NCBI RefSeq assembly: GCF_963974515.1
Contig: NZ_CAXBDD010000003.1
Coordinates: 71,898-135,897, forward strand
DNA: 64,000 nt
Reading direction: 5' to 3'
DNA from: an uncultured Sunxiuqinia sp.
GTDB taxonomy: Bacteria > Bacteroidota > Bacteroidia > Bacteroidales > Prolixibacteraceae
In this document: positions 1,742 to 40,168 of the stretch, piece by piece
How the letters are laid out: every line of letters starts with the position of its first letter
Numbering within the stretch: position 1 is the first letter of the stretch
Made by a program: the position numbers and the translations under genes
The notes under the pieces: model-generated
What the model saw: only the letters and a program-made list of their open reading frames with translations
Database searches by the model: none
Told to the model about the DNA's origin: nothing

Positions 1742-2167
1742 ATGTTGAAAGGAATTATGTCGATATCAGGCCAGCCAGGGTTATTTAAGCTGGTAGCCGA
1801 AGCAAAGAATAGTATCATTGTTGAGTCGCTTGTTACCGGAAAGAGAATGCCGGCTTACTCCACTTCAAAAATCAGTGCATTGGAAGATATTGCAATCTTT
1901 ACCACAACTAGCGAAGTGCCATTGAAAGAGGTTCTTAAATCCATTTCAGAAAAAGAGAACGGAGGCCAGGCAACAATAAAAGGTTCTGGCAATGAGCTGA
2001 AAACCTATTTTGAAGAAGTCTTGCCGGAATACGACAAGGATCGTGTGTACGTTTCAGATATGAAAAAAGTAATTCAGTGGTATAACTTACTGCAAAGCAA
2101 AGAACTTCTGAATTTTGACGAAGAATCGGAAACTGATGGTAACATGGAATCAGAGTCCGAGGCTTAA
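1742..2167 (+). CDS. DUF5606 family protein
   Basis: N-terminus MLKGIMSISGQPGLFKLV and motif DRVYVSDMKKVIQWYN match this Bacteroidota-conserved family. Confidence 0.8.
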   Translation: MLKGIMSISGQPGLFKLVAEAKNSIIVESLVTGKRMPAYSTSKISALEDIAIFTTTSEVPLKEVLKSISEKENGGQATIKGSGNELKTYFEEVLPEYDKDRVYVSDMKKVIQWYNLLQSKELLNFDEESETDGNMESESEA

Positions 2168-2257
2168 GGTTTTTATTGACGTTCGAAATATGGAAGTAGC
2201 AAATCATGCTTTGAAGCAGATTTGCTACTTTTTTTTATTATGCTGAAATTTGATGTT

Positions 2258-3139
2258 ATGGAACAACAAATTATCAGCGAGATCATCAAAAAATACGAAT
2301 CCGAATTTTCGGAAAAGTTGGTCATTAATAATAAGCAATCGGTTGGAGGCGGTTGTATCAGCCACAGTCTGAAACTGGAGACCAACCACGGCGTTTTCTT
2401 TTTGAAATGGAACACCAATACTCCCGATGATTTGTTTGTGCGCGAAGCCGAATCACTCAACGAATTAGGGACAGGTAACCAGTCAGGTTTGCGGATCCCC
2501 AAAGCAATCCTCGCCAATCAAGCGTCAGACCTGCCCGGCTATCTGTTGCTCGAATTCCTCTCCTCGGGCCATACGGCTGCCGAAGATGAAAAACTTGGAA
2601 TTGGACTGGCACGCCTCCATCGAAAAACAAACGATGCTTTCGGCTTTCATCACAACAACTATTGCGGATCGACAGAACAAGACAACCGTTGGAATCCGGA
2701 TTGGATTGATTTTTTCGGACAACAACGAATTTGCTTTCTGGTTGAGAAAATAAGCCAGACCCGATCACTTACATCAACCGAAAGAGAAACTTACAGCAAG
2801 CTGGTTGACCGTTTGCCTAATCTGATTCCTTCAAATCCGGAGGCCTCGCTGATTCATGGCGACCTTTGGTCCGGAAATTATCTGTACACTACGCAAGGGC
2901 CGGCCCTGATTGATCCGGCAAGTTATTATGCCGATCGGGAAATGGAGCTTTCAATGATGACCATGTTTGGCGGATTTTCGCCAACAACCTGGCGCGCCTA
3001 CCAAAATGAGTTTCCATTGCAAGCTGGATGGGAAGAACGCATTCAGCTTTACCAGATTTACCATGTGCTGAATCACTATTTCCTGTTTGGCGGATCCTAC
3101 GGAAGTCAAGCCCTTAGCATGGCCCAACGGTATTTATAA
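2258..3139 (+). CDS. Fructosamine kinase family protein
   Basis: VGGGCIS, FFLKWN, LIHGDLWSGN, IDPASYYADREMEL and YHVLNH motifs. Confidence 0.9.
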   Translation: MEQQIISEIIKKYESEFSEKLVINNKQSVGGGCISHSLKLETNHGVFFLKWNTNTPDDLFVREAESLNELGTGNQSGLRIPKAILANQASDLPGYLLLEFLSSGHTAAEDEKLGIGLARLHRKTNDAFGFHHNNYCGSTEQDNRWNPDWIDFFGQQRICFLVEKISQTRSLTSTERETYSKLVDRLPNLIPSNPEASLIHGDLWSGNYLYTTQGPALIDPASYYADREMELSMMTMFGGFSPTTWRAYQNEFPLQAGWEERIQLYQIYHVLNHYFLFGGSYGSQALSMAQRYL

Positions 3140-3387
3140 ATCGGGAAAATCCGACAACACCAATAGCTTCGCAAGTTCTTGCGGATGATTCACAAGCTCC
3201 TACAAACGCTTCCCAAACTCATATGGATGAGTTCCAAGGCGGTCAAATGAAGGATAATGCTTTTCGGCTAAGGCACCAGCGGCGTCCGATGCACGCCGGA
3301 ATCAATTGCTTACGAATAAATTCCAGGGTCTAATTTCCAAATTCCATCCTACATCCAGCAAATCACCAATTATCCAATCACCAACAT

Positions 3388-4038
3388 TCAAATCTCCACC
3401 AACTGGTTTTTTATGGCGTACATCACCAGTTGTGCGGTATTTTTGCTTTCGCTTTTTTCCAGAATATTGGAGCGGTGTTTATCTACCGTTCGTTTCGAAA
3501 TGTAGAGTTGATCAGCAATCTCCTGGTTCGAAAAACCCTGGCATATCAAGATCAAAATTTCCGTTTCGCGTTCCGAAAGTACGTTTTGTTTTTCGTGGTG
3601 TTGTGATTTGGAGCGAAGGCTGTTGACAAGGTTTTTCAGTAGTTCGGACGAAAAATAGGTACCACCTTCCAGTACAGTTTGCAAAGCTGCTTTCACTTCG
3701 TTGATATCGGAGTTTTTCAGCAAAAACCCCTTTACGCCGGCATCAACCATCTTGTAGTAATAATCTTCTTCGCCATACATCGACAGCGTAATGATTTTCA
3801 GATCAGGCAATTTTTCGAGCGCCAACCGGGCTGCATCAATTCCATCCATCACCGGCATGTCGATGTCGAGCAAAACCAAATCAGGAACGTGCGATTCGAG
3901 CAAATCGATAAACTCCCGGCCGTTTGCTGCTTCAGCAGTCACTTTGTATTCATTCAAATTATTCAACAATATTCGCAAGCCGTTGCGAAATAAAGTATGG
4001 TCGTCGACCAACATGATTCTATACGGTGCTTTACTCAT
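3388..4038 (-). CDS. NarL/LuxR-family response regulator
   Basis: REC domain (LVDDH, DLVLLDIDMP, GFLLK) plus LuxR HTH (LSERETEIL...IADQLYISKRTVDKHRSNI). Confidence 0.95.
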   Translation of the reverse strand: MSKAPYRIMLVDDHTLFRNGLRILLNNLNEYKVTAEAANGREFIDLLESHVPDLVLLDIDMPVMDGIDAARLALEKLPDLKIITLSMYGEEDYYYKMVDAGVKGFLLKNSDINEVKAALQTVLEGGTYFSSELLKNLVNSLRSKSQHHEKQNVLSERETEILILICQGFSNQEIADQLYISKRTVDKHRSNILEKSESKNTAQLVMYAIKNQLVEI

Positions 4039-4990
4039 CGGTTGTTTTTACTTTAATGTAAACCTGTGTTCCCTCCCCGGTTTTGCTTTTAAGCGATATT
4101 TCGCCTTTTAGGGAATTGATACGCGAATAAATATTTGAAAAGCCCATACCGCCCACCAAGGGTTGTTCCTCCAGCTTTTCCATGTCAAAACCGATCCCGT
4201 CATCCTGATATGATATCAAAAGATCACTGGCTTCCTTTTGCAGTTGAATAGAAATGGTCTTTGCTTGAGCATGTTTGATCGTGTTGTTGATCAGCTCGCA
4301 AACCACACGATACAAAACCACTTCAATATTATTGCTGAAACGCTCATTTCCCAGATTTGATTCGAGTTCAATGTGGATAGCCCGGGTGGCATTAATTTTA
4401 TTGCTGAAGTTGCGCAAAGCTCGCAACAAACCAAAGTTGTTGAGTACATGAGGACTCAGATTATCCGATATTTCTTTCAGCGATTTGATAGCCTCATTGA
4501 TCACCATTTCGGTGTTGTCTACAATTTCTTTCGAAGCCTGATCATGCTCCAGCTGGGCCAGCGAAGAGACCGACATCTTTACGGTTGAGAGCAGTGGCCC
4601 AAGTCCGTCGTGCAGATCTTTGGCAAACCGCTTGCGTTCTTTTTCTTCGGTTTGAATGATGGCATTCAGAAACATCTTCTCCGTAAGGCGACGCGAATCT
4701 TCCACCCGTTTCATGTATTTAAAAATACGCTGAATCATAAACACGCCAATAGCGAAAGAGAGGGAAATGACCACTCCAAACCAAACGGCCACTTCACCCA
4801 GTTCCTGAGGCTCAAAATTACTGATGTAAGGCAGAAATTCGAGCATTCGGCTGACGGCCATGAAAATAAAGCCAATGGTCAGTAAAATCCATGAAAAATT
4901 GTACTTCGTCACCCGGGTCAGCTTAATAGCTACGCCAACAGCAAAAATTTGCAGCACAATGGAAATTGCCAATAGAACCTGAAGTACCAT
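4031..4990 (-). CDS. Membrane sensor histidine kinase (HisKA_3 type)
   Basis: Three N-terminal TM helices, H-box ERKRFAKDLHDGLGP, N-box ELINNTIKHA, DDGIGF; overlaps the regulator start. Confidence 0.93.
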   Translation of the reverse strand: MVLQVLLAISIVLQIFAVGVAIKLTRVTKYNFSWILLTIGFIFMAVSRMLEFLPYISNFEPQELGEVAVWFGVVISLSFAIGVFMIQRIFKYMKRVEDSRRLTEKMFLNAIIQTEEKERKRFAKDLHDGLGPLLSTVKMSVSSLAQLEHDQASKEIVDNTEMVINEAIKSLKEISDNLSPHVLNNFGLLRALRNFSNKINATRAIHIELESNLGNERFSNNIEVVLYRVVCELINNTIKHAQAKTISIQLQKEASDLLISYQDDGIGFDMEKLEEQPLVGGMGFSNIYSRINSLKGEISLKSKTGEGTQVYIKVKTTDE

Positions 4991-5251
4991 ATCCGGAGTA
5001 ATTAATCGCTTTCTGCAAATGTACGATTGCCTGCGGGCTTTTCAAACTAAGGAACCACGAGCACTGCTATTTTATCGTTTCCCTCGTAAGTGCGACCTTC
5101 TACCCGTTTTCATAAGCGAATAAAATGAAGCCAGACAATGCGGGGGTTGGTGCGCCTGACCGAAAATGAATCCTTGAAATACCTCATCGGCTTAAAGAAA
5201 AAAATTGTATTTTGACCGGTAAATAATTCGCAAATCACTAATTCTGAAATT

Positions 5252-34571: not shown

Positions 34572-34603
34572 AAAAGCTTCCATCGATTGATGGGAGCTTT
34601 TTT
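34572..34603. terminator. Terminator after the rpmB-rpmG-DUF4295 operon
   Basis: aagcttccatc/gatgggagctt stem followed by a T-run. Confidence 0.8.
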
Positions 34604-34633: not shown

Positions 34634-35404
34634 TCATTCCGGCGATTTCTCCGGCAGAAACTTCCAATACCGCCGGGGCATATGCTGGCGTTGCAGTTTG
34701 TGGTTCTTTCGCTCCTTAATGTTGATGCTGTCAAAGTAATTCTTCCACAATACCTGGTAGCTGGCTTCCTGCTCCTGTAGCAAGTTGTGATTGACCTTCC
34801 CGTCCAGGCGGGAAAAGGTCTTCTCCGAAATCTCCACTTCCCGAACCGTTTTTAGATCGTAATAAAAGCCATAATCGCGTTTCAGGTCGTAAATCAGCCA
34901 CTGTTGATCGGCAAACCGGTTCTTGAAATGCCGGAGGGTAAAGGGCAATACATCGTATGCCGGTTCAACCGGGGCGAAATAAAGGCCATCTTTGGTTTCC
35001 TGGAATCGAACAAACTGAAGCAGGCGAGAGGTTTCCTGCAGGACTTTCCGTTCCAGCTTTTTCAATTGAAGCACATCTGCATCGCCATAATCGGATTCAA
35101 TGCTGAATTTGGTGTCGAACAAACGGCGGACAAAACGAAACAACATCATCTCGATGCCGGGCTCTGCAGACAAGAAAGCCATGAAAGGCAATTCTTTGTT
35201 TCGTTGATGAAGCTTTTGCCTCAAGGCTTTCCAAACACGATTGGCTTGCTGCTCATTGGTTGAAATAACTTGCTTCTCGGTAAACAAGACTTCCTGAAAA
35301 TCAACTTCGCCACAAATGTCAGTTGGCGTAATTTTTTGTTGATAGCACTGAAAAACAACGCTTAACAAGCCTTCGAACGTTCCATCGTAAATTAAATAAG
35401 CCAT
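34634..35404 (-). CDS. TIGR03915-type putative DNA metabolism protein (DUF4130)
   Basis: YDGTFEGLL, FVRF, HFKNRFADQQWLIYD, WKNYFDSINIKERKN..LQRQHMPRRYW. Confidence 0.88.
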   Translation of the reverse strand: MAYLIYDGTFEGLLSVVFQCYQQKITPTDICGEVDFQEVLFTEKQVISTNEQQANRVWKALRQKLHQRNKELPFMAFLSAEPGIEMMLFRFVRRLFDTKFSIESDYGDADVLQLKKLERKVLQETSRLLQFVRFQETKDGLYFAPVEPAYDVLPFTLRHFKNRFADQQWLIYDLKRDYGFYYDLKTVREVEISEKTFSRLDGKVNHNLLQEQEASYQVLWKNYFDSINIKERKNHKLQRQHMPRRYWKFLPEKSPE

Positions 35405-35408
35405 GCTG

Positions 35409-36713
35409 TTAATTCTTAAAATGAAGCTGTTTGGGACCGCACACCGGGCTGGGCTGAGGAGGGAATAGCATCAGCTGGGTATCTCCTGCTTTCCGGCGTT
35501 TCATCTGGCTCTCAGCCAAAATATGATTTTTCAGGCGTTCAGGTTCCCAGCTGACCATTCGTGGTGGCAATTCGTTACATGTAATAAAGTACTGCGCTCG
35601 TTTCATCACTACGCCAATCTTTTTCAAATGAAAGCTGGTCAGTCGTCGAAAACGTCGGGTATCGACAATCATTCGGGCGGATTGCACCCCAATGCCAGGC
35701 ACTCGTAAAATCAGGTGGTAGTCGGCTTTGTTAATATCAACAGGGAACAAGTGTAAGTTTCGGATCGCGAATGCCAGCTTCGGATCAATCTCCAGATCCA
35801 GAAAAAGTCGCTCCGGCGTAAGAATTTCATCGGGCGAAAACTCATAAAACCGCATCAGCCAGTCGCTTTGATACAGCCGGTTTTCGCGTACCAATGGTGG
35901 TGACTGTATAGCCGGAAGCCGTTTGTCGTATTCATTCACAGGCAAATAACCGGAATAATAAACTCGTTTCAGTTTCTGTTGATGATAGAAGTTTGAGGAA
36001 AGCTGAAGAATGTCCCGATCACTTTCGGGTGTGGCACCTACAATAATCTGGGTGCTTTGTCCGGCGGGTGTAAACTTCGGTACCCTGTGAAACTTTTTGC
36101 GTTCTTCTTTATAGGCTTGAATGCCTTCGCTGATTTGGTTCATTGGCTGCAGAACACTTGCGTAATCTTTTTCGGGCGCCAGCTTTTTCAGTTGCAGTTC
36201 GGTTGGTATCTCAATGTTCACGCTCATTCGATCAGCGTATCGGCCGGCTTCATAAATCAGTTCGCGACTGGCTCCCGGAATGGCTTTCAGGTGAATATAA
36301 CCATAGTAGCGTTCCTTCAAGCGCAGTTTTTTGGCTACCAGCATCATGCGCTCCATCGTGTAGTCCGGATTTTTAATTACGCCGGAGCTTAAAAACAAAC
36401 CCTCAATGTAATTTCTTCGGTAAAAACCAATGGTCAGATCAACGATTTCCTGAACGGTGAAAGCGGCGCGAGGGCGGTCGTTGGTTCGCCGGTTAATGCA
36501 ATAGGCGCAATCGTAAATACAATGGTTGGTCATCAAAATCTTAAACAGGCTGATGCAGCGTCCGTCATCGGTAAAGCTGTGGCAAATACCTGCTGCCACG
36601 GCATTTCCAATTCCATCGTTGTTGTTCCGGCTGTTTCCGCTCGATGAGCAGGATACATCGTATTTCGCTGCATCGGCTAATATTTTTAGTTTTTCTTGAA
36701 TGGTCGCATTCAT
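35409..36713 (-). CDS. Putative DNA modification/repair radical SAM protein (TIGR03916 type) with HhH
   Basis: ILADAAKYDVSCSSSG, GICHS, CIYDCAYC (CX3CX2C), GLFLSSG, RENRLYQSDWL, HhH LLRVPGIG-like segment. Confidence 0.92.
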   Translation of the reverse strand: MNATIQEKLKILADAAKYDVSCSSSGNSRNNNDGIGNAVAAGICHSFTDDGRCISLFKILMTNHCIYDCAYCINRRTNDRPRAAFTVQEIVDLTIGFYRRNYIEGLFLSSGVIKNPDYTMERMMLVAKKLRLKERYYGYIHLKAIPGASRELIYEAGRYADRMSVNIEIPTELQLKKLAPEKDYASVLQPMNQISEGIQAYKEERKKFHRVPKFTPAGQSTQIIVGATPESDRDILQLSSNFYHQQKLKRVYYSGYLPVNEYDKRLPAIQSPPLVRENRLYQSDWLMRFYEFSPDEILTPERLFLDLEIDPKLAFAIRNLHLFPVDINKADYHLILRVPGIGVQSARMIVDTRRFRRLTSFHLKKIGVVMKRAQYFITCNELPPRMVSWEPERLKNHILAESQMKRRKAGDTQLMLFPPQPSPVCGPKQLHFKN

Positions 36714-36770
36714 AATCGATAAGCTTGTATGATTCTTGTTTTTTTATTGGCAAACGAGATGATAAAATTA

Positions 36771-36802
36771 CTAATAAAATTAGTAATTACTAATAGGATT
36801 AG
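36771..36802. promoter_or_regulatory. Two tandem palindromic operators CTAA-N5-TTAG (36771-36783 and 36790-36802)
   Basis: ctaaTAAAAttag and ctaaTAGGAttag; the first extends to attactaa-N5-ttagtaat; both lie between divergent starts next to -7 box TATATTTG (36804-36811). Confidence 0.75.
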
Positions 36803-36815
36803 GTATATTTGGTGG

Positions 36816-37574
36816 ATGAATTTTTTAGCACAGAATATCAAGTATTTACGAAAAACAAAGCAGTGGACGCAGCAACAGTTGGCTGATGAACTTCAGATAA
36901 AACGTGCATTGGTTGGTTCGTACGAAGAGGGTAGGGCAACGCCTAAAATCGCCGTACTTCAGCGGCTGGCTGTCTTGCTGGATACGAAATTGGATGACCT
37001 GCTGGGCAGGCCTTTGGAAGAAAAACAAGAAGGCAGGTCACCTTCAGCCAAGGTGTTGTCCATTGTGGTGGATCAAAATAATGAAGAATTGATTCCCATT
37101 GTTCCTGCAAAAGCTTCGGCAGGGTACCTAAACGGTTTTGCTGACCCGCATTATGTGGAGTCGCTGCCTCGCTTTTATATGCCTATTCCCGAATTGTCGC
37201 GCGAACGCACCTATCGTGTCTTTCAGATCAAAGGCGACAGCATGTTACCTGTGCTGCCTGAATCTTATCTGTTTTGTGAATATGTGCCGGATTTGGAAGA
37301 TTTGAAAAATGGACAAACGTATATCCTCATCACCAAAGATGAAGGTCTGGTTTATAAACGTGTCTTTTTGAAAGCTGCCAGCCAGTTACTGCTGAAGTCG
37401 GATAATCCGGAATACGATTCTTATGTAATTGGCTTGGAGCAAGTGTTGGAATTGTGGAAAGCCAAAGGCGTTTTAAGCTTCGAACTTCCAAAGCCCGAAA
37501 TGATGAGATCAGCCCATATTTCGTCTGTTTTGAAGGAAGTGAAGGATGAGATTCGGAAGCTGAGAAATCAATAG
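36816..37574 (+). CDS. CI/LexA-like repressor (XRE HTH plus S24 autopeptidase)
   Basis: HTH NIKYLRK..WTQQQLAD..IKRALVGSYEEGRA; Ala-Gly site ASAG; catalytic Ser GDSM and Lys VYKRV. Confidence 0.9.
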   Translation: MNFLAQNIKYLRKTKQWTQQQLADELQIKRALVGSYEEGRATPKIAVLQRLAVLLDTKLDDLLGRPLEEKQEGRSPSAKVLSIVVDQNNEELIPIVPAKASAGYLNGFADPHYVESLPRFYMPIPELSRERTYRVFQIKGDSMLPVLPESYLFCEYVPDLEDLKNGQTYILITKDEGLVYKRVFLKAASQLLLKSDNPEYDSYVIGLEQVLELWKAKGVLSFELPKPEMMRSAHISSVLKEVKDEIRKLRNQ

Positions 37575-38872: not shown

Positions 38873-40168
38873 ATGAAACGAGGAAAAGTTAATATAACCA
38901 CCCTGGGGTGTTCGAAAAATTTGGTTGATTCGGAAATGCTGCTCAACCAGCTTGATCTGAATGGTTTTAAAGTGGTTCACGACAGTGAAGATGATGATGC
39001 CAATATTGTTATTCTGAATACCTGTGGCTTTATCATGGATGCCAAGGAAGAATCCATCAATTCGATCTTGAGCCACGCCCAGGCCCGAAAAAGCGGAAAG
39101 TTGGATAAGCTGCTGGTTATGGGTTGTTTGTCGGCGCGCTACAAGGAAGACTTGGAGAAGGAAATTCCGGAAGTAGATAAATTCTACGGCAAATTTGACT
39201 ACAAGCAAATTATTCAGGATTTGAATGCCAACTTCTTTGAACAGAAGATGTATCACCGCCTGAAAACAACACCGAGCCACTTTTCTTACCTGAAAATCAG
39301 TGAAGGATGCAACCGGCACTGCTCATTTTGTGCCATTCCCCAGTTTACCGGAATCCATAAATCGCGCAGCATAGAGAGTTTGCTGGAAGAAGCCCAAACA
39401 CTGGTTGATAGTGGAACTAAAGAACTGCTGATCATTGCGCAGGATTTGTCATACTACGGAATTGATATGTATGGCGAAAGCAAGTTGGCCGAACTGATTG
39501 ACCGGTTGGCCGATATTAAAGGATTGGAATGGATCCGCTTGCATTATGCCTACCCGTCTAAATTTCCGATGGACTTGCTGAAAGTGATCCGTGAACGACA
39601 TAACGTGGCCAGCTACCTGGATTTGCCATTACAGCACATAAGCGACCGAATGCTGGGGCGTATGCGCCGAAAAATTACCAAAGACGAAACCATCAGCCTG
39701 ATCAACAGGATCCGTGAGGAAGTACCGGGAATTGCGTTGCGAACTACCTTTTTGGTTGGCCACCCGGGTGAAACTGAAGAAGATTTTGAAGAATTGAAAG
39801 CCTTTGTTGCCGAGCAGAAATTCGATCGCATGGGCGTTTTCGCCTATTCGGACGAAGATGATACTTACGCTTTTAAAATGTACGAGGACGATGTTCCGGA
39901 AGACGTAAAACAGGAACGCGCGGCAGAACTGATGGAACTCCAACAAAACATTTCTGAAAAACTAAATACAGAGAAAGTAGGGAAGACCCTAAAAGTATTG
40001 ATTGATCGCGAGGAGGCAGATTATTTTGTTGGCCGGACTGAATTTGACTCACCTGAAGTGGATGGGGAAGTGTTGGTTGAAAAAGAGGAATCAATTCAAA
40101 TTGGTCAATTCTACCCGATTCAGATCGCCGACTCAACCGAGTTTGACTTGATTGGGAAAGTTTCCTGA
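38873..40168 (+). CDS. rimO: Ribosomal protein S12 methylthiotransferase
   Basis: LGCSKNLVDSE, NTCGFI, CNRHCSFC, TRAM tail with SPEVDG. Confidence 0.95.
   Translation: MKRGKVNITTLGCSKNLVDSEMLLNQLDLNGFKVVHDSEDDDANIVILNTCGFIMDAKEESINSILSHAQARKSGKLDKLLVMGCLSARYKEDLEKEIPEVDKFYGKFDYKQIIQDLNANFFEQKMYHRLKTTPSHFSYLKISEGCNRHCSFCAIPQFTGIHKSRSIESLLEEAQTLVDSGTKELLIIAQDLSYYGIDMYGESKLAELIDRLADIKGLEWIRLHYAYPSKFPMDLLKVIRERHNVASYLDLPLQHISDRMLGRMRRKITKDETISLINRIREEVPGIALRTTFLVGHPGETEEDFEELKAFVAEQKFDRMGVFAYSDEDDTYAFKMYEDDVPEDVKQERAAELMELQQNISEKLNTEKVGKTLKVLIDREEADYFVGRTEFDSPEVDGEVLVEKEESIQIGQFYPIQIADSTEFDLIGKVS

Follow-up and report, generated by a model that had tools for sequence, protein, structure and literature searches.

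What does an operon of the TIGR03916/TIGR03915 type do behind a repressor gene of its own, and how much of the cell's response to DNA damage does that repressor govern? This pair of proteins, a radical SAM protein and its partner, is present in roughly one-fifth of prokaryotic genomes (TIGRFAM description) and has been tied repeatedly to DNA-damage regulons. A preliminary description of the locus had stated that the pair lacks a demonstrated substrate, and this holds across the literature that we searched. Here, we analyze such an operon in a 64-kb window (the whole stretch of DNA under study) of a Prolixibacteraceae (Sunxiuqinia-like) chromosome. With a probability of roughly 0.7, we read the locus as a minimal, clade-specific SOS cassette in which a private non-canonical LexA switch would drive a radical SAM-DUF4130 output.

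The three open reading frames lie where they had been placed, as a two-gene minus-strand operon facing the repressor gene, and the ATG of the partner gene does follow 4 nt past the stop codon of the radical SAM gene (Table 1). Profile searches, which had been proposed as a check on the family assignments, put both enzymes above the cut-offs. The radical SAM protein (rSAM) scores 640.8 bits against TIGR03916 (cut-off, 343.5), with residues 5-415 covering profile positions 1-413 of 415, and 37.2 bits against the Pfam model Radical_SAM. The CX3CX2C motif read from the sequence is C65-X3-C69-X2-C72, which is invariant, and the C-terminal HhH segment is recovered as an HHH_3 match at residues 325-356 (26.3 bits, marginally below the 27-bit cut-off). 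The partner scores 263.4 bits against TIGR03915 (cut-off, 112.25) and matches DUF4130 at an E value of 2e-52. It was described as having no fused uracil-DNA glycosylase (UDG) domain and no udg gene nearby; both statements stand. No UDG domain was found in its 256 aa, the 54 orthologues in the clade range from 253 to 293 aa, and the genome's only two UDG-superfamily genes lie on other contigs (C27 and C28), of which the gene on C28 matches only family-4 UDG models in NCBIfam, below their cut-offs, and not TIGR03914. Among TIGR03915 partners generally, ~40% carry a UDG fusion (TIGRFAM description).

Table 1. Genes, operators and candidate promoter elements of the locus (window coordinates)
Feature	Coordinates	Strand	Description
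TIGR03915/DUF4130 partner	34634..35404	-	256 aa, without UDG; second gene of the operon
TIGR03916 radical SAM + HhH (rSAM)	35409..36713	-	434 aa; TIGR03916, Radical_SAM, HHH_3
HTH_3 + Peptidase_S24 repressor	36816..37574	+	252 aa; start from orthologue alignment
Weak terminator-like hairpin (tentative)	34580..34593	-	~40 nt past the stop codon of the partner gene
Operator O3, CTAATATTTTTAG	36677..36689		Exact CTAA-N5-TTAG inside rSAM codons 9-13 (L-K-I-L-A)
Operator O1, CTAATAAAATTAG	36771..36783		Core of the perfect 23-bp palindrome AATTACTAATAAAATTAGTAATT (36766-36788)
Operator O2, CTAATAGGATTAG	36790..36802		Begins 19 bp past the start of O1
Candidate -7 box of the rSAM operon, TAATTTTA	36763..36770	-	Footprint-conserved; TAATTTTG in most orthologues
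Candidate -7 box of the repressor gene, TATATTTG	36804..36811	+	In orthologues, TAnnTTT(G) is conserved immediately past O2

The repressor matches HTH_3 (44.4 bits) and Peptidase_S24 (34.9 bits) above the cut-offs as well as the phrog_4 transcriptional repressor (E = 1.9e-23). Its N-terminus is of the HTH_3/XRE type and gives no match to PF01726, the winged helix of canonical LexA. The true start is probably the ATG at 36816 MNFLAQNIKYLRK, at which the orthologues begin; the start at 36729, which would give a 281-aa ORF, was rejected because that extension would span the operators and lacks conservation. In the 252-aa numbering, the intact residues noted from the sequence are the Ala102-Gly103 cleavage site, the nucleophile Ser142 (in GDSM) and the base Lys181 (in VYKR), a reading that alignment with a paralogue bears out. 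[quoted passage not shown]

Two exact CTAA-N5-TTAG sites, conserved in orthologues, lie in the 45 nt that precede the ATG at 36816. These operators, O1 and O2, and a candidate -7 box beside each stand out by phylogenetic footprinting in a spacer that is otherwise unalignable. The Bacteroidetes -7 consensus is TAnnTTTG, and we take the two boxes to be -7 elements by their match to it. The box of the rSAM operon departs from the consensus at one position in this window; it directly adjoins the O1 core and reaches into the extended arm of O1. That of the repressor gene starts 1 nt past O2 and stops 4 nt short of the ATG, which implies a leaderless or near-leaderless repressor mRNA. A sigma-70 promoter scan yielded fewer matches than shuffled sequences, and the sigma-70 model is not applicable to Bacteroidetes promoters; likewise, the region has no more terminator-like sites than shuffled sequences would lead one to expect. 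The spacing between O1 and O2 is 19 bp in 12 orthologous cases and 21 bp in nine. Codon choice preserves the third operator, O3: at Leu9, 49 of 59 orthologues (83%) use CTA, compared with 8.9% CTA across 23 further Leu columns that are invariant, and the O3 core is exact in 32 of 60 orthologues and has one mismatch in a further nine. Moreover, distances between O3 and O1 in related loci are phased at ~10.5 bp (R = 0.59, P ~0.008), which is suggestive of helical phasing.

How far does this switch reach? The locus had been called self-contained, and whole-genome motif scans agree in confining the functional operator to this promoter. In the window, all three exact sites lie within 126 bp of the rSAM/repressor promoter. 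The genome holds 20 exact CTAA-N5-TTAG sites; the other 17 have no extended arms and are mostly within coding sequences or beside unrelated genes. Using a position weight matrix (PWM) built from 74 orthologous exact-core sites, the lowest of which scored 15.2 bits, we found sites of at least 15.2 bits only at this locus in the 4.57 Mb: O1 is the genome's top site (31.7 bits) and O3 its second best (19.3 bits), and O2 scores <12 bits because of its GG spacer. The best match elsewhere (on contig C113; 15.1 bits) was rejected, its dyad being broken, as were near-miss sites with one mismatch in the extended operator, for which the neighboring genes examined encode TatA and a sugar isomerase. Scans of the genome in the exact, mismatch-tolerant and PWM modes thus gave no functional operator outside this promoter, and neither at recA nor at dinB did we find the operator of this switch or that of the second switch described below. 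Because no other target was found in the genome, the repressor appears to be a private regulator, and its predicted regulon is a single divergent promoter from which it would control only itself and the rSAM operon. A diverged functional site might be missed because the PWM was trained on exact-core sites, as might a promoter at a contig end because the assembly consists of 229 contigs.

The repressor could be a global SOS master regulator as in Pontibacter actiniarum, with its adjacency to rSAM incidental and its other sites missed by the scans. We consider this very improbable. In PMC8565304, these repressors are described as acting globally, with ~9 operons per regulon in several families, and the restricted training of the PWM leaves room for such sites; the same paper, however, itself reports contracted regulons in some clades, and the extended operator is equally rare in four relatives, in which the remaining sites lie in coding sequence or beside unrelated genes. 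The scarcity of sites in this genome and the regions upstream of recA and dinB, which are without the dyad, also speak against a global regulator. The imuA-imuB-dnaE2 cassette has its own repressor. This paralogue, rep2, is 34% identical to the repressor over the full length, has the Ala-Gly, Ser and Lys residues intact and lies beside imuA-imuB-dnaE2 with an operator, TTGTTAT-N5-ATAACAA, that differs from CTAA-N5-TTAG and is unique in the genome. Judged by this arrangement, rep2 is a predicted second private switch, running imuA-imuB-dnaE2 through an orthogonal operator.

The pairing of repressor and operon is clade-specific. The repressor gene adjoins the rSAM operon at 63 of 80 repressor-orthologue loci, and 24 of the 30 rSAM loci in the same family have the divergent repressor beside them, a recurrence that argues against chance. 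In an even sample of the rest of the phylum, the repressor lies beside rSAM at none of 29 loci, and the pairing was therefore rejected as a general trait of the rSAM operon. The flanks of the locus encode peroxiredoxin, L28, L33, FtsY and RimO, the GC content is flat across it, and neither rSAM nor its partner matches a PHROG; a prophage immunity (CI) module was rejected on these grounds. PADLOC returned generic HTH matches for the repressor and no match for rSAM or the partner. As the enzymes match neither PADLOC nor PHROGs, we dropped the defense-system and phage-cargo readings.

We expect the operon to be damage-inducible, given its operators and homology. This is an expectation, not a new proposal, because PMC8565304 had earlier placed the rSAM/DUF4130 operon among the predicted members of the SOS regulon. 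A search for sequencing runs that contain this stretch returned DNA and metagenome runs only. Were the repressor a phage CI-type protein that the host has domesticated, responding to some other signal or only regulating itself, the operon would not be induced by damage; the phage-like N-terminal domain (phrog_4; RstR-like) and a recA gene outside the control of a CTAA-N5-TTAG operator would suit such a protein. For the family, RecA-dependent cleavage is deduced in PMC8565304 from conserved residues; these residues are intact both here and in rep2, and the same paper describes mitomycin C induction of family members and their targets in three species. Together with the housekeeping flanks, which are free of prophage, and with relatives in which the same repressor forms one unit with the classic SOS genes umuD-umuC-SRAP, this makes a repressor that does not respond to RecA improbable.

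If the switch senses damage, what would its output do? The AlphaFold2 model of rSAM is mediocre (pLDDT 68), and its Foldseek matches are generic radical-SAM cores (PFL-AE, PylB, LipA, viperin and BioB; TM 0.3-0.5), so that the model points to no specific reaction. A search of PDB sequences gave nothing meaningful for rSAM or the partner. In addition to the canonical cluster motif, rSAM has an extra invariant set, C22, C44, H45 and C53, across 61 sequences that include a phylum-wide set. The partner model (pLDDT 86.9) yields weak DHH/RecJ/PAP-phosphatase-like matches, and no DHH or DxD catalytic motif is found among the invariant residues; the partner is therefore modelled as a catalytically dead DHH/RecJ-like fold without UDG.

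Direct reversal by a photoproduct lyase of the spore photoproduct lyase type (SPL; SplB-like) is one reaction to consider, since the enzyme was labelled 'SplB-like radical SAM photolyase'-associated in Biol Direct 2013 and SplB (COG1533) is also listed as a member of the Bacteroidetes SOS regulon in PMC8565304. That list, however, keeps COG1533 and COG4277 as separate members. We found no SPL model among the matches of rSAM in NCBIfam or Pfam, no SPL chain in the PDB sequence search and none in the top 50 Foldseek matches of the weak model (pLDDT 68), and SPL has neither HhH, DUF4130 partner nor the N-terminal Cys3-His set. An SplB-like lyase is accordingly extremely unlikely. A possible but still unlikely alternative is a stress-induced modifier of RNA (tRNA or rRNA) or of DNA bases like MiaB, RimO and RlmN, which would not repair lesions. 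The Cys3-His set is typical of the auxiliary sites of radical SAM enzymes that insert sulfur or methyl groups, LipA and BioB are among the Foldseek matches, a thymine modification has been proposed by Aravind and colleagues, and a preprint (bioRxiv 10.64898/2026.08.19.745780) likens the complex to MiaB, leaving the type of nucleic acid undecided. On the other side, control of the pair by SOS-type switches recurs in unrelated phyla, many partners are fused to UDG, HhH is a DNA-type binding motif, and neither enzyme matches a defense or modification family in PADLOC. It is this regulation and the HhH segment that suggest DNA, as opposed to RNA, as the substrate.

In the SOS cassette that we propose, the repressor would bind the CTAA-N5-TTAG operators, with O1 placed next to the -7 box of the rSAM promoter and O2 next to that of the repressor's own, and O3 would probably contribute through cooperative binding, a loop or a roadblock. 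Upon DNA damage, RecA-ssDNA filaments would trigger cleavage at Ala102-Gly103 by Ser142/Lys181; the repressor dimer would then come off the DNA, relieving repression of its own gene and of the rSAM-DUF4130 operon alike. The output would most likely be a heterodimer of rSAM and DUF4130. We speculate that the rSAM subunit provides the canonical [4Fe-4S] site, a second metal site at the invariant Cys3-His set and the C-terminal HhH, that the catalytically dead DHH/RecJ-like DUF4130 subunit holds single-stranded nucleic acid, and that a 5'-deoxyadenosyl radical abstracts hydrogen from a base or sugar that has been damaged, in DNA exposed at stalled forks. A bolder version, which we hold to be rather doubtful, is that the SOS response of the clade has been dismantled into orthogonal private switches, with rSAM/DUF4130 as the sole output of one RecA-sensing repressor; that the two-cluster enzyme ([4Fe-4S] plus the invariant Cys3-His), with a dead RecJ-like subunit threading ssDNA, uses radical chemistry of a kind so far undescribed to reverse a lesion directly, or to excise it, in ssDNA gaps; and that O3 and O1 form a helically phased repression loop.

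The locus leaves the current picture of SOS regulation unchanged. It illustrates how an SOS network can shrink and break up into private repressor-cargo cassettes with orthogonal operators, and the codon-level evidence for an in-gene operator is a small, concrete addition on this repressor family. Moreover, the clade offers an unusually clean genetic handle on the reaction of the pair: a dedicated repressor with rSAM and the partner as its sole predicted target, three well-defined operators, a partner without a UDG fusion to confound assays, and cultured relatives (Mangrovibacterium and Gaoshiqia).

Among the closest known systems are HdiR of Lactococcus and UmuDAb of Acinetobacter, S24 repressors other than LexA that cleave themselves and whose DNA-damage regulons are small and local; they differ from the repressor here in DNA-binding domain, operators and cargo (umuDC-type polymerases). 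[quoted passage not shown] In that account, the COG4277-COG1573 (rSAM-DUF4130/UDG) operon is among the predicted SOS regulon members of the family regulator, and non-canonical LexA regulators are reported as absent from the order Bacteroidales. The repressor here shares with these proteins the CI-type HTH_3 plus S24 architecture, the Ala-Gly, Ser and Lys residues and autoregulation via CTAA-N5-TTAG dyads, of which there are often at least two per promoter (PMC8565304). In contrast to the global repressors of recA, umuDC and dinB, with their multi-operon regulons, it has a single divergent promoter instead of ~9 operons, with recA, dinB and the imuAB cassette outside; it is physically fixed beside the rSAM operon across the clade; and its third operator lies within the coding sequence of its target. 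It is thus a homologue of the family acting as a local regulator. A local precedent, as described in PMC8565304, is the paralogue in Elizabethkingia anophelis (TTAC-N5-GTAA, beside an error-prone polymerase), which regulates its divergent gene. Its dyad-N5-dyad operator architecture is shared by both switches here, especially that of rep2 and imuA-imuB-dnaE2; unlike in E. anophelis, the cargo of the rSAM switch is rSAM/DUF4130 and not a polymerase, and its operator has not diverged from the consensus.

DNA damage controls this pair of genes elsewhere as well: the pair is activated by DdaA in Acinetobacter (PMC12392091) and regulated by LexA in Alphaproteobacteria and Verrucomicrobia (as cited in PMC8565304), among others. 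Those TIGR03916/TIGR03915 (COG4277/COG1573) operons are parts of large regulons and answer to a canonical LexA encoded at a distance or to a WYL activator, unlike the operon here with its divergent repressor. In many of them the partner is fused to a family-4-like UDG domain, a fusion that no partner of this clade has. With MiaB and RimO, the pair shares a radical SAM core, a further metal site rich in Cys and a module, apart from the core, for positioning the substrate (nucleic acid or protein), and in the MiaB comparison of the preprint (bioRxiv 10.64898/2026.08.19.745780), DUF4130 takes the place of the TRAM/OB domain. rSAM differs from both in having neither UPF0004 nor TRAM, in its accessory, which is a separate DHH-like protein, and in its C-terminal HhH, and Pfam and PDB sequence searches revealed no sequence-level relationship to either. 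Because the repressor type is already known from PMC8565304 to run the Bacteroidetes SOS response, here seemingly only locally, we conclude that the locus represents a known system in a tidy, clade-specific form and not a new system, and that this genome adds to it a one-promoter regulon, a second private switch, a clade-specific pairing, a selected in-gene operator and features of the enzyme.

The genes for the TIGR03916 radical SAM protein (rSAM) and its TIGR03915/DUF4130 partner face the gene for a repressor, in which the Pfam domains HTH_3 and Peptidase_S24 each exceed their cut-off. The listed start of the repressor ORF at 36729, which lies 16 nt from the rSAM start and would require translation through the operators, was rejected. 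The alignment of orthologues begins at the ATG at 36816 (MNFLAQNIKYLRK); the preceding stretch is not conserved as coding. From this ATG, the repressor comprises 252 aa with Ala102-Gly103, Ser142 (GDSM) and Lys181 (VYKR). The source organism belongs to the Prolixibacteraceae, and the repressor is 90% identical in the closest locus, which is from a Sunxiuqinia MAG. According to Sanchez-Osuna et al. (NAR 2021, PMC8565304), the Bacteroidetes SOS response is run by two groups of "non-canonical LexA", and CTAA-N5-TTAG is the operator of one of them, as established by EMSA with site-directed mutagenesis together with mitomycin C induction; the paper also lists the COG1573-COG4277 operon, i.e. the UDG/DUF4130 and radical SAM pair, as a predicted regulon member under both motifs. 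Because the operator matches this published motif exactly and the pair is in the predicted regulon, the core of the preliminary description, in which a CI/LexA-like repressor places a radical SAM pair for repair or modification under SOS control, is right; SOS control of the pair is already in the literature at the phylum level.

The three ORFs were confirmed in the window sequence at the positions first described, and the claim that the partner lacks a fused UDG domain was borne out by NCBIfam and Pfam profile searches, in which it matched TIGR03915 and DUF4130. rSAM is also matched by the Pfam profile Radical_SAM and, slightly below threshold, by HHH_3 at residues 325-356, and its stop codon is separated from the start of the partner gene by 4 nt. 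The neighbors of the cassette are housekeeping genes (for peroxiredoxin, ribosomal proteins L28 and L33, FtsY, and RimO) and the surrounding GC content is flat; a prophage location was rejected for these two reasons. The RimO/MiaB-type radical SAM methylthiotransferase (UPF0004, Radical_SAM and TRAM), encoded 1.3 kb downstream of the repressor gene, is unrelated to the cassette.

Coordinates of the cassette, its predicted regulatory elements, and the locus of the second repressor
Feature	Coordinates	Strand	Remarks
Partner	34634-35404	-	TIGR03915, 263.4 bits; DUF4130 match
rSAM	35409-36713	-	End-to-end TIGR03916 match, 640.8 bits vs cut-off of 343.5
O3	36677-36689		Predicted operator within rSAM codons 9-13 (L-K-I-L-A)
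Candidate rSAM -7 box	36763-36770	-	TAATTTTA in the window; left end of block 1
O1	36771-36783		Predicted operator
O2	36790-36802		Predicted operator
Candidate repressor -7 box	36804-36811	+	TATATTTG; ends 4 nt before the ATG
RimO/MiaB-type protein	38873-40168		
rep2 and imuA-imuB-dnaE2	G000:C17:19978-26605 (source assembly, outside the window)	divergent	rep2 is an HTH-S24 repressor of 270 aa

A perfect 23-bp palindrome, AATTACTAATAAAATTAGTAATT, lies in the divergent spacer and is followed by a second copy 19 bp further on; the cores of the two copies, CTAATAAAATTAG and CTAATAGGATTAG, are exact CTAA-N5-TTAG sites (O1 and O2). In a phylogenetic footprint built from 16 loci with directly adjacent genes, two blocks are conserved and the rest of the spacer is unalignable. 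The -7 promoter element of Bacteroidetes has the consensus TAnnTTTG. Block 1 reads AAAA(T/A)TACTAA-N5-TTAGTA, and its left end, TAATTTTG on the minus strand, presumably represents such an element, which would place O1 directly against the predicted rSAM promoter. In block 2, TAnnTTTG follows directly after O2 on the plus strand, suggesting that O2 occludes the predicted promoter of the repressor gene itself; given how closely this box precedes the ATG, the repressor mRNA would be leaderless or nearly so. O1 and O2 lie 19 bp apart in 12 cases and 21 bp apart in nine.

The third operator, O3, lies within the rSAM coding sequence, and the codon data suggest that conservation of the peptide is not enough to account for that of the site. 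Its first Leu is a CTA codon in 49 of 59 orthologues; CTA makes up 8.9% of codons pooled across 23 further columns of these genes in which Leu is invariant (single-column maximum, 23%) and 5.5% of Leu codons genome-wide in the source genome. Of 60 orthologues, 32 preserve the CTAA/TTAG core exactly and nine more differ from it at one position, and its spacer changes, even non-synonymously, while the core is kept. O3-O1 distances range from 51 to 253 bp and cluster in steps of ~10.5 bp (R = 0.59 for unique values; P ~0.008 against a jitter null after the period scan, with loci that are related). This phasing is suggestive of, and would fit, cooperative binding on one helix face, i.e. a repression loop. 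The 253-bp distance is found in a Sunxiuqinia relative (L009:4740-5000), in which a ~160-bp MITE-like insert with internal inverted repeats between the rSAM start and O1 has shifted O3; the operators themselves are kept.

We propose that repressor dimers on O1 and O2, aided by O3, would close both promoters; that RecA filaments would trigger self-cleavage at Ala102-Gly103; and that cleavage would derepress both transcription units, with re-made repressor resetting the switch. We estimate the probability of this regulatory mechanism at about 0.8.

The cassette had been described as self-contained, and this holds in that exact, mismatch-tolerant and PWM scans all confine the operator to one promoter. 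The 64-kb window has three exact CTAA-N5-TTAG sites, all within 126 bp of the cassette promoter. The 4.57-Mb assembly has 20, of which the 17 outside the locus lie mostly in coding sequence or beside unrelated genes and none carries the extended TTACTAA/TTAGTAA arms. Using a PWM trained on 74 operator sites of orthologous promoters (lowest training score, 15.2 bits), we found scores of ≥15.2 bits in the whole assembly only at the cassette locus (31.7 and 19.3 bits); in the next site, at 15.1 bits, the dyad is broken. One-mismatch extended sites adjoin genes for TatA and a sugar isomerase, and the recA and dinB promoters lack a CTAA-N5-TTAG dyad. Extended sites are likewise scarce in four relatives with large assemblies (two to six per genome); the orthologous locus holds one extended copy in three of the four, and the other copies examined are in coding sequence or flank unrelated genes. 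Overall, CTAA-N5-TTAG is ~five-fold under-represented in the source assembly (20 observed vs ~102 expected from base composition), and ACTAA-N5-TTAGT occurs 2-6 times in the relatives G001-G004 vs 14-54 times for the pattern read backwards. Two possible causes of this scarcity are that spurious operators are selected against and that words containing stop codons are simply avoided.

Among 80 loci with repressor orthologues (44-90% identity), rSAM is upstream on the opposite strand in 63; the two genes are directly adjacent at 44 of the 63, with CTAA-N5-TTAG sites present at all except four of the 44. Intervening genes at some loci are umuD-umuC-SRAP with the repressor last (rSAM-partner <-> umuD-umuC-SRAP-repressor) and at others unrelated small genes. 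Three Prolixibacteraceae loci (L030, L053, L056; ~2150-5000) have this island expanded by umuD-umuC-SRAP, with CTAA-N5-TTAG in the shared divergent promoter, and L040 lacks the rSAM pair but has the umuD-umuC-SRAP-repressor unit. The repressor tree has a well-supported clade of 71 in which rSAM adjacency predominates; the basal flavobacterial-type branches lack it. Within the family, TIGR03916 is present in 36 and absent from 25 of 61 sampled genomes, and a divergent HTH-S24 gene lies within 1.5 kb at 24 of 30 rSAM loci. In an even sample of the phylum, TIGR03916 is present in 41 of 151 genomes, and none of the 29 other rSAM loci has a divergent HTH-S24 neighbor, arguing that the cassette is a clade-specific arrangement and not general to the operon. 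At six loci (L132, L135, L137, L143, L148 and L150), the divergent HTH-S24 neighbor is 35-60% identical and an exact CTAA-N5-TTAG was not found close to the start of rSAM; the operators of these repressors may have diverged. Two genomes of the family carry a TIGR03916 gene that is split or contains in-frame stops (TGA, TAA) (G180:C10:19741-20933 and G159:C222:20412-21528), supporting that the operon is dispensable and decaying in some lineages.

A PDB sequence search found no solved relative of rSAM or its partner. Structure prediction gave a mediocre model of rSAM (pLDDT 68), whose structural matches are limited to generic radical SAM cores. The top 50 of these do not include spore photoproduct lyase (SPL), and rSAM has no SPL family match in NCBIfam or Pfam; the old label "SplB-like" is on both counts without support. 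Besides C65/C69/C72, all 61 sequences examined, among them the phylum-wide set (54-63% identity), have an invariant C22, C44, H45 and C53. These residues precede the CX3CX2C motif, fall in a low-confidence part of the model, and may, given their conservation, make up an auxiliary Fe-S or Zn site; we found no mention of this set in the literature searched. The partner model is good (pLDDT 86.9), and its best matches, all weak, are the DHH/DHHA1 proteins PggH, PAP phosphatase, RecJ and Cdc45. Neither a DHH nor a DxD motif is present among its invariant residues, many of which are Arg, Trp, Phe or Tyr. These model-based results agree with a 2026 preprint (bioRxiv 10.64898/2026.08.19.745780), which describes a confident predicted rSAM-DUF4130 heterodimer with a narrow channel and DUF4130 as a non-catalytic DHH/RecJ-like nucleic-acid binder, without settling the reaction or which kind of nucleic acid is involved. 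No biochemical or genetic characterization of the pair was found in the literature searched. We speculate that the output of the switch would be a heterodimer, a radical SAM enzyme probably with two clusters, which its HhH and DUF4130 would hold on single-stranded or gapped DNA, and whose 5'-deoxyadenosyl radical would abstract a hydrogen from a damaged base or sugar. This enzymology is our preferred reading, at low confidence; the chief alternative is a MiaB- or RlmN-like enzyme that modifies bases in DNA or RNA.

The source genome encodes a second full-length repressor paralogue (rep2), 34% identical and with Ala-Gly, Ser and Lys intact, beside imuA-imuB-dnaE2. Its promoter has the dyad TTGTTAT-TAATA-ATAACAA (C17:20814-20832), of different sequence and the same architecture as CTAA-N5-TTAG, with a degenerate tandem copy at C17:20791; the exact operator occurs once in the genome. 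One-mismatch intergenic copies are at C5:85947, C15:31352, C20:5784, C37:2127, C43:27490 and C80:7407. Because the cassette operator is confined and rep2 has a unique operator of its own, we suggest that at least two private switches, orthogonal in their operators, divide the SOS genes of this genome between them. Altogether, the observation is confirmed and its interpretation supported, and this kind of system has already been described. Its interest lies in the one-promoter regulon and the two orthogonal private switches and, further, in the apparently selected in-gene operator and the invariant extra Cys3-His set of the rSAM family. The Acinetobacter DdaA DNA-damage regulon also includes an rSAM-DUF4130 pair (PMC12392091). 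PMC8565304 describes regulon contraction in some clades and, in Elizabethkingia, paralogues with diverged operators adjoining an error-prone polymerase; compared with these cases, the source genome presents an extreme combination of contraction and a diverged paralogue rather than a new principle.
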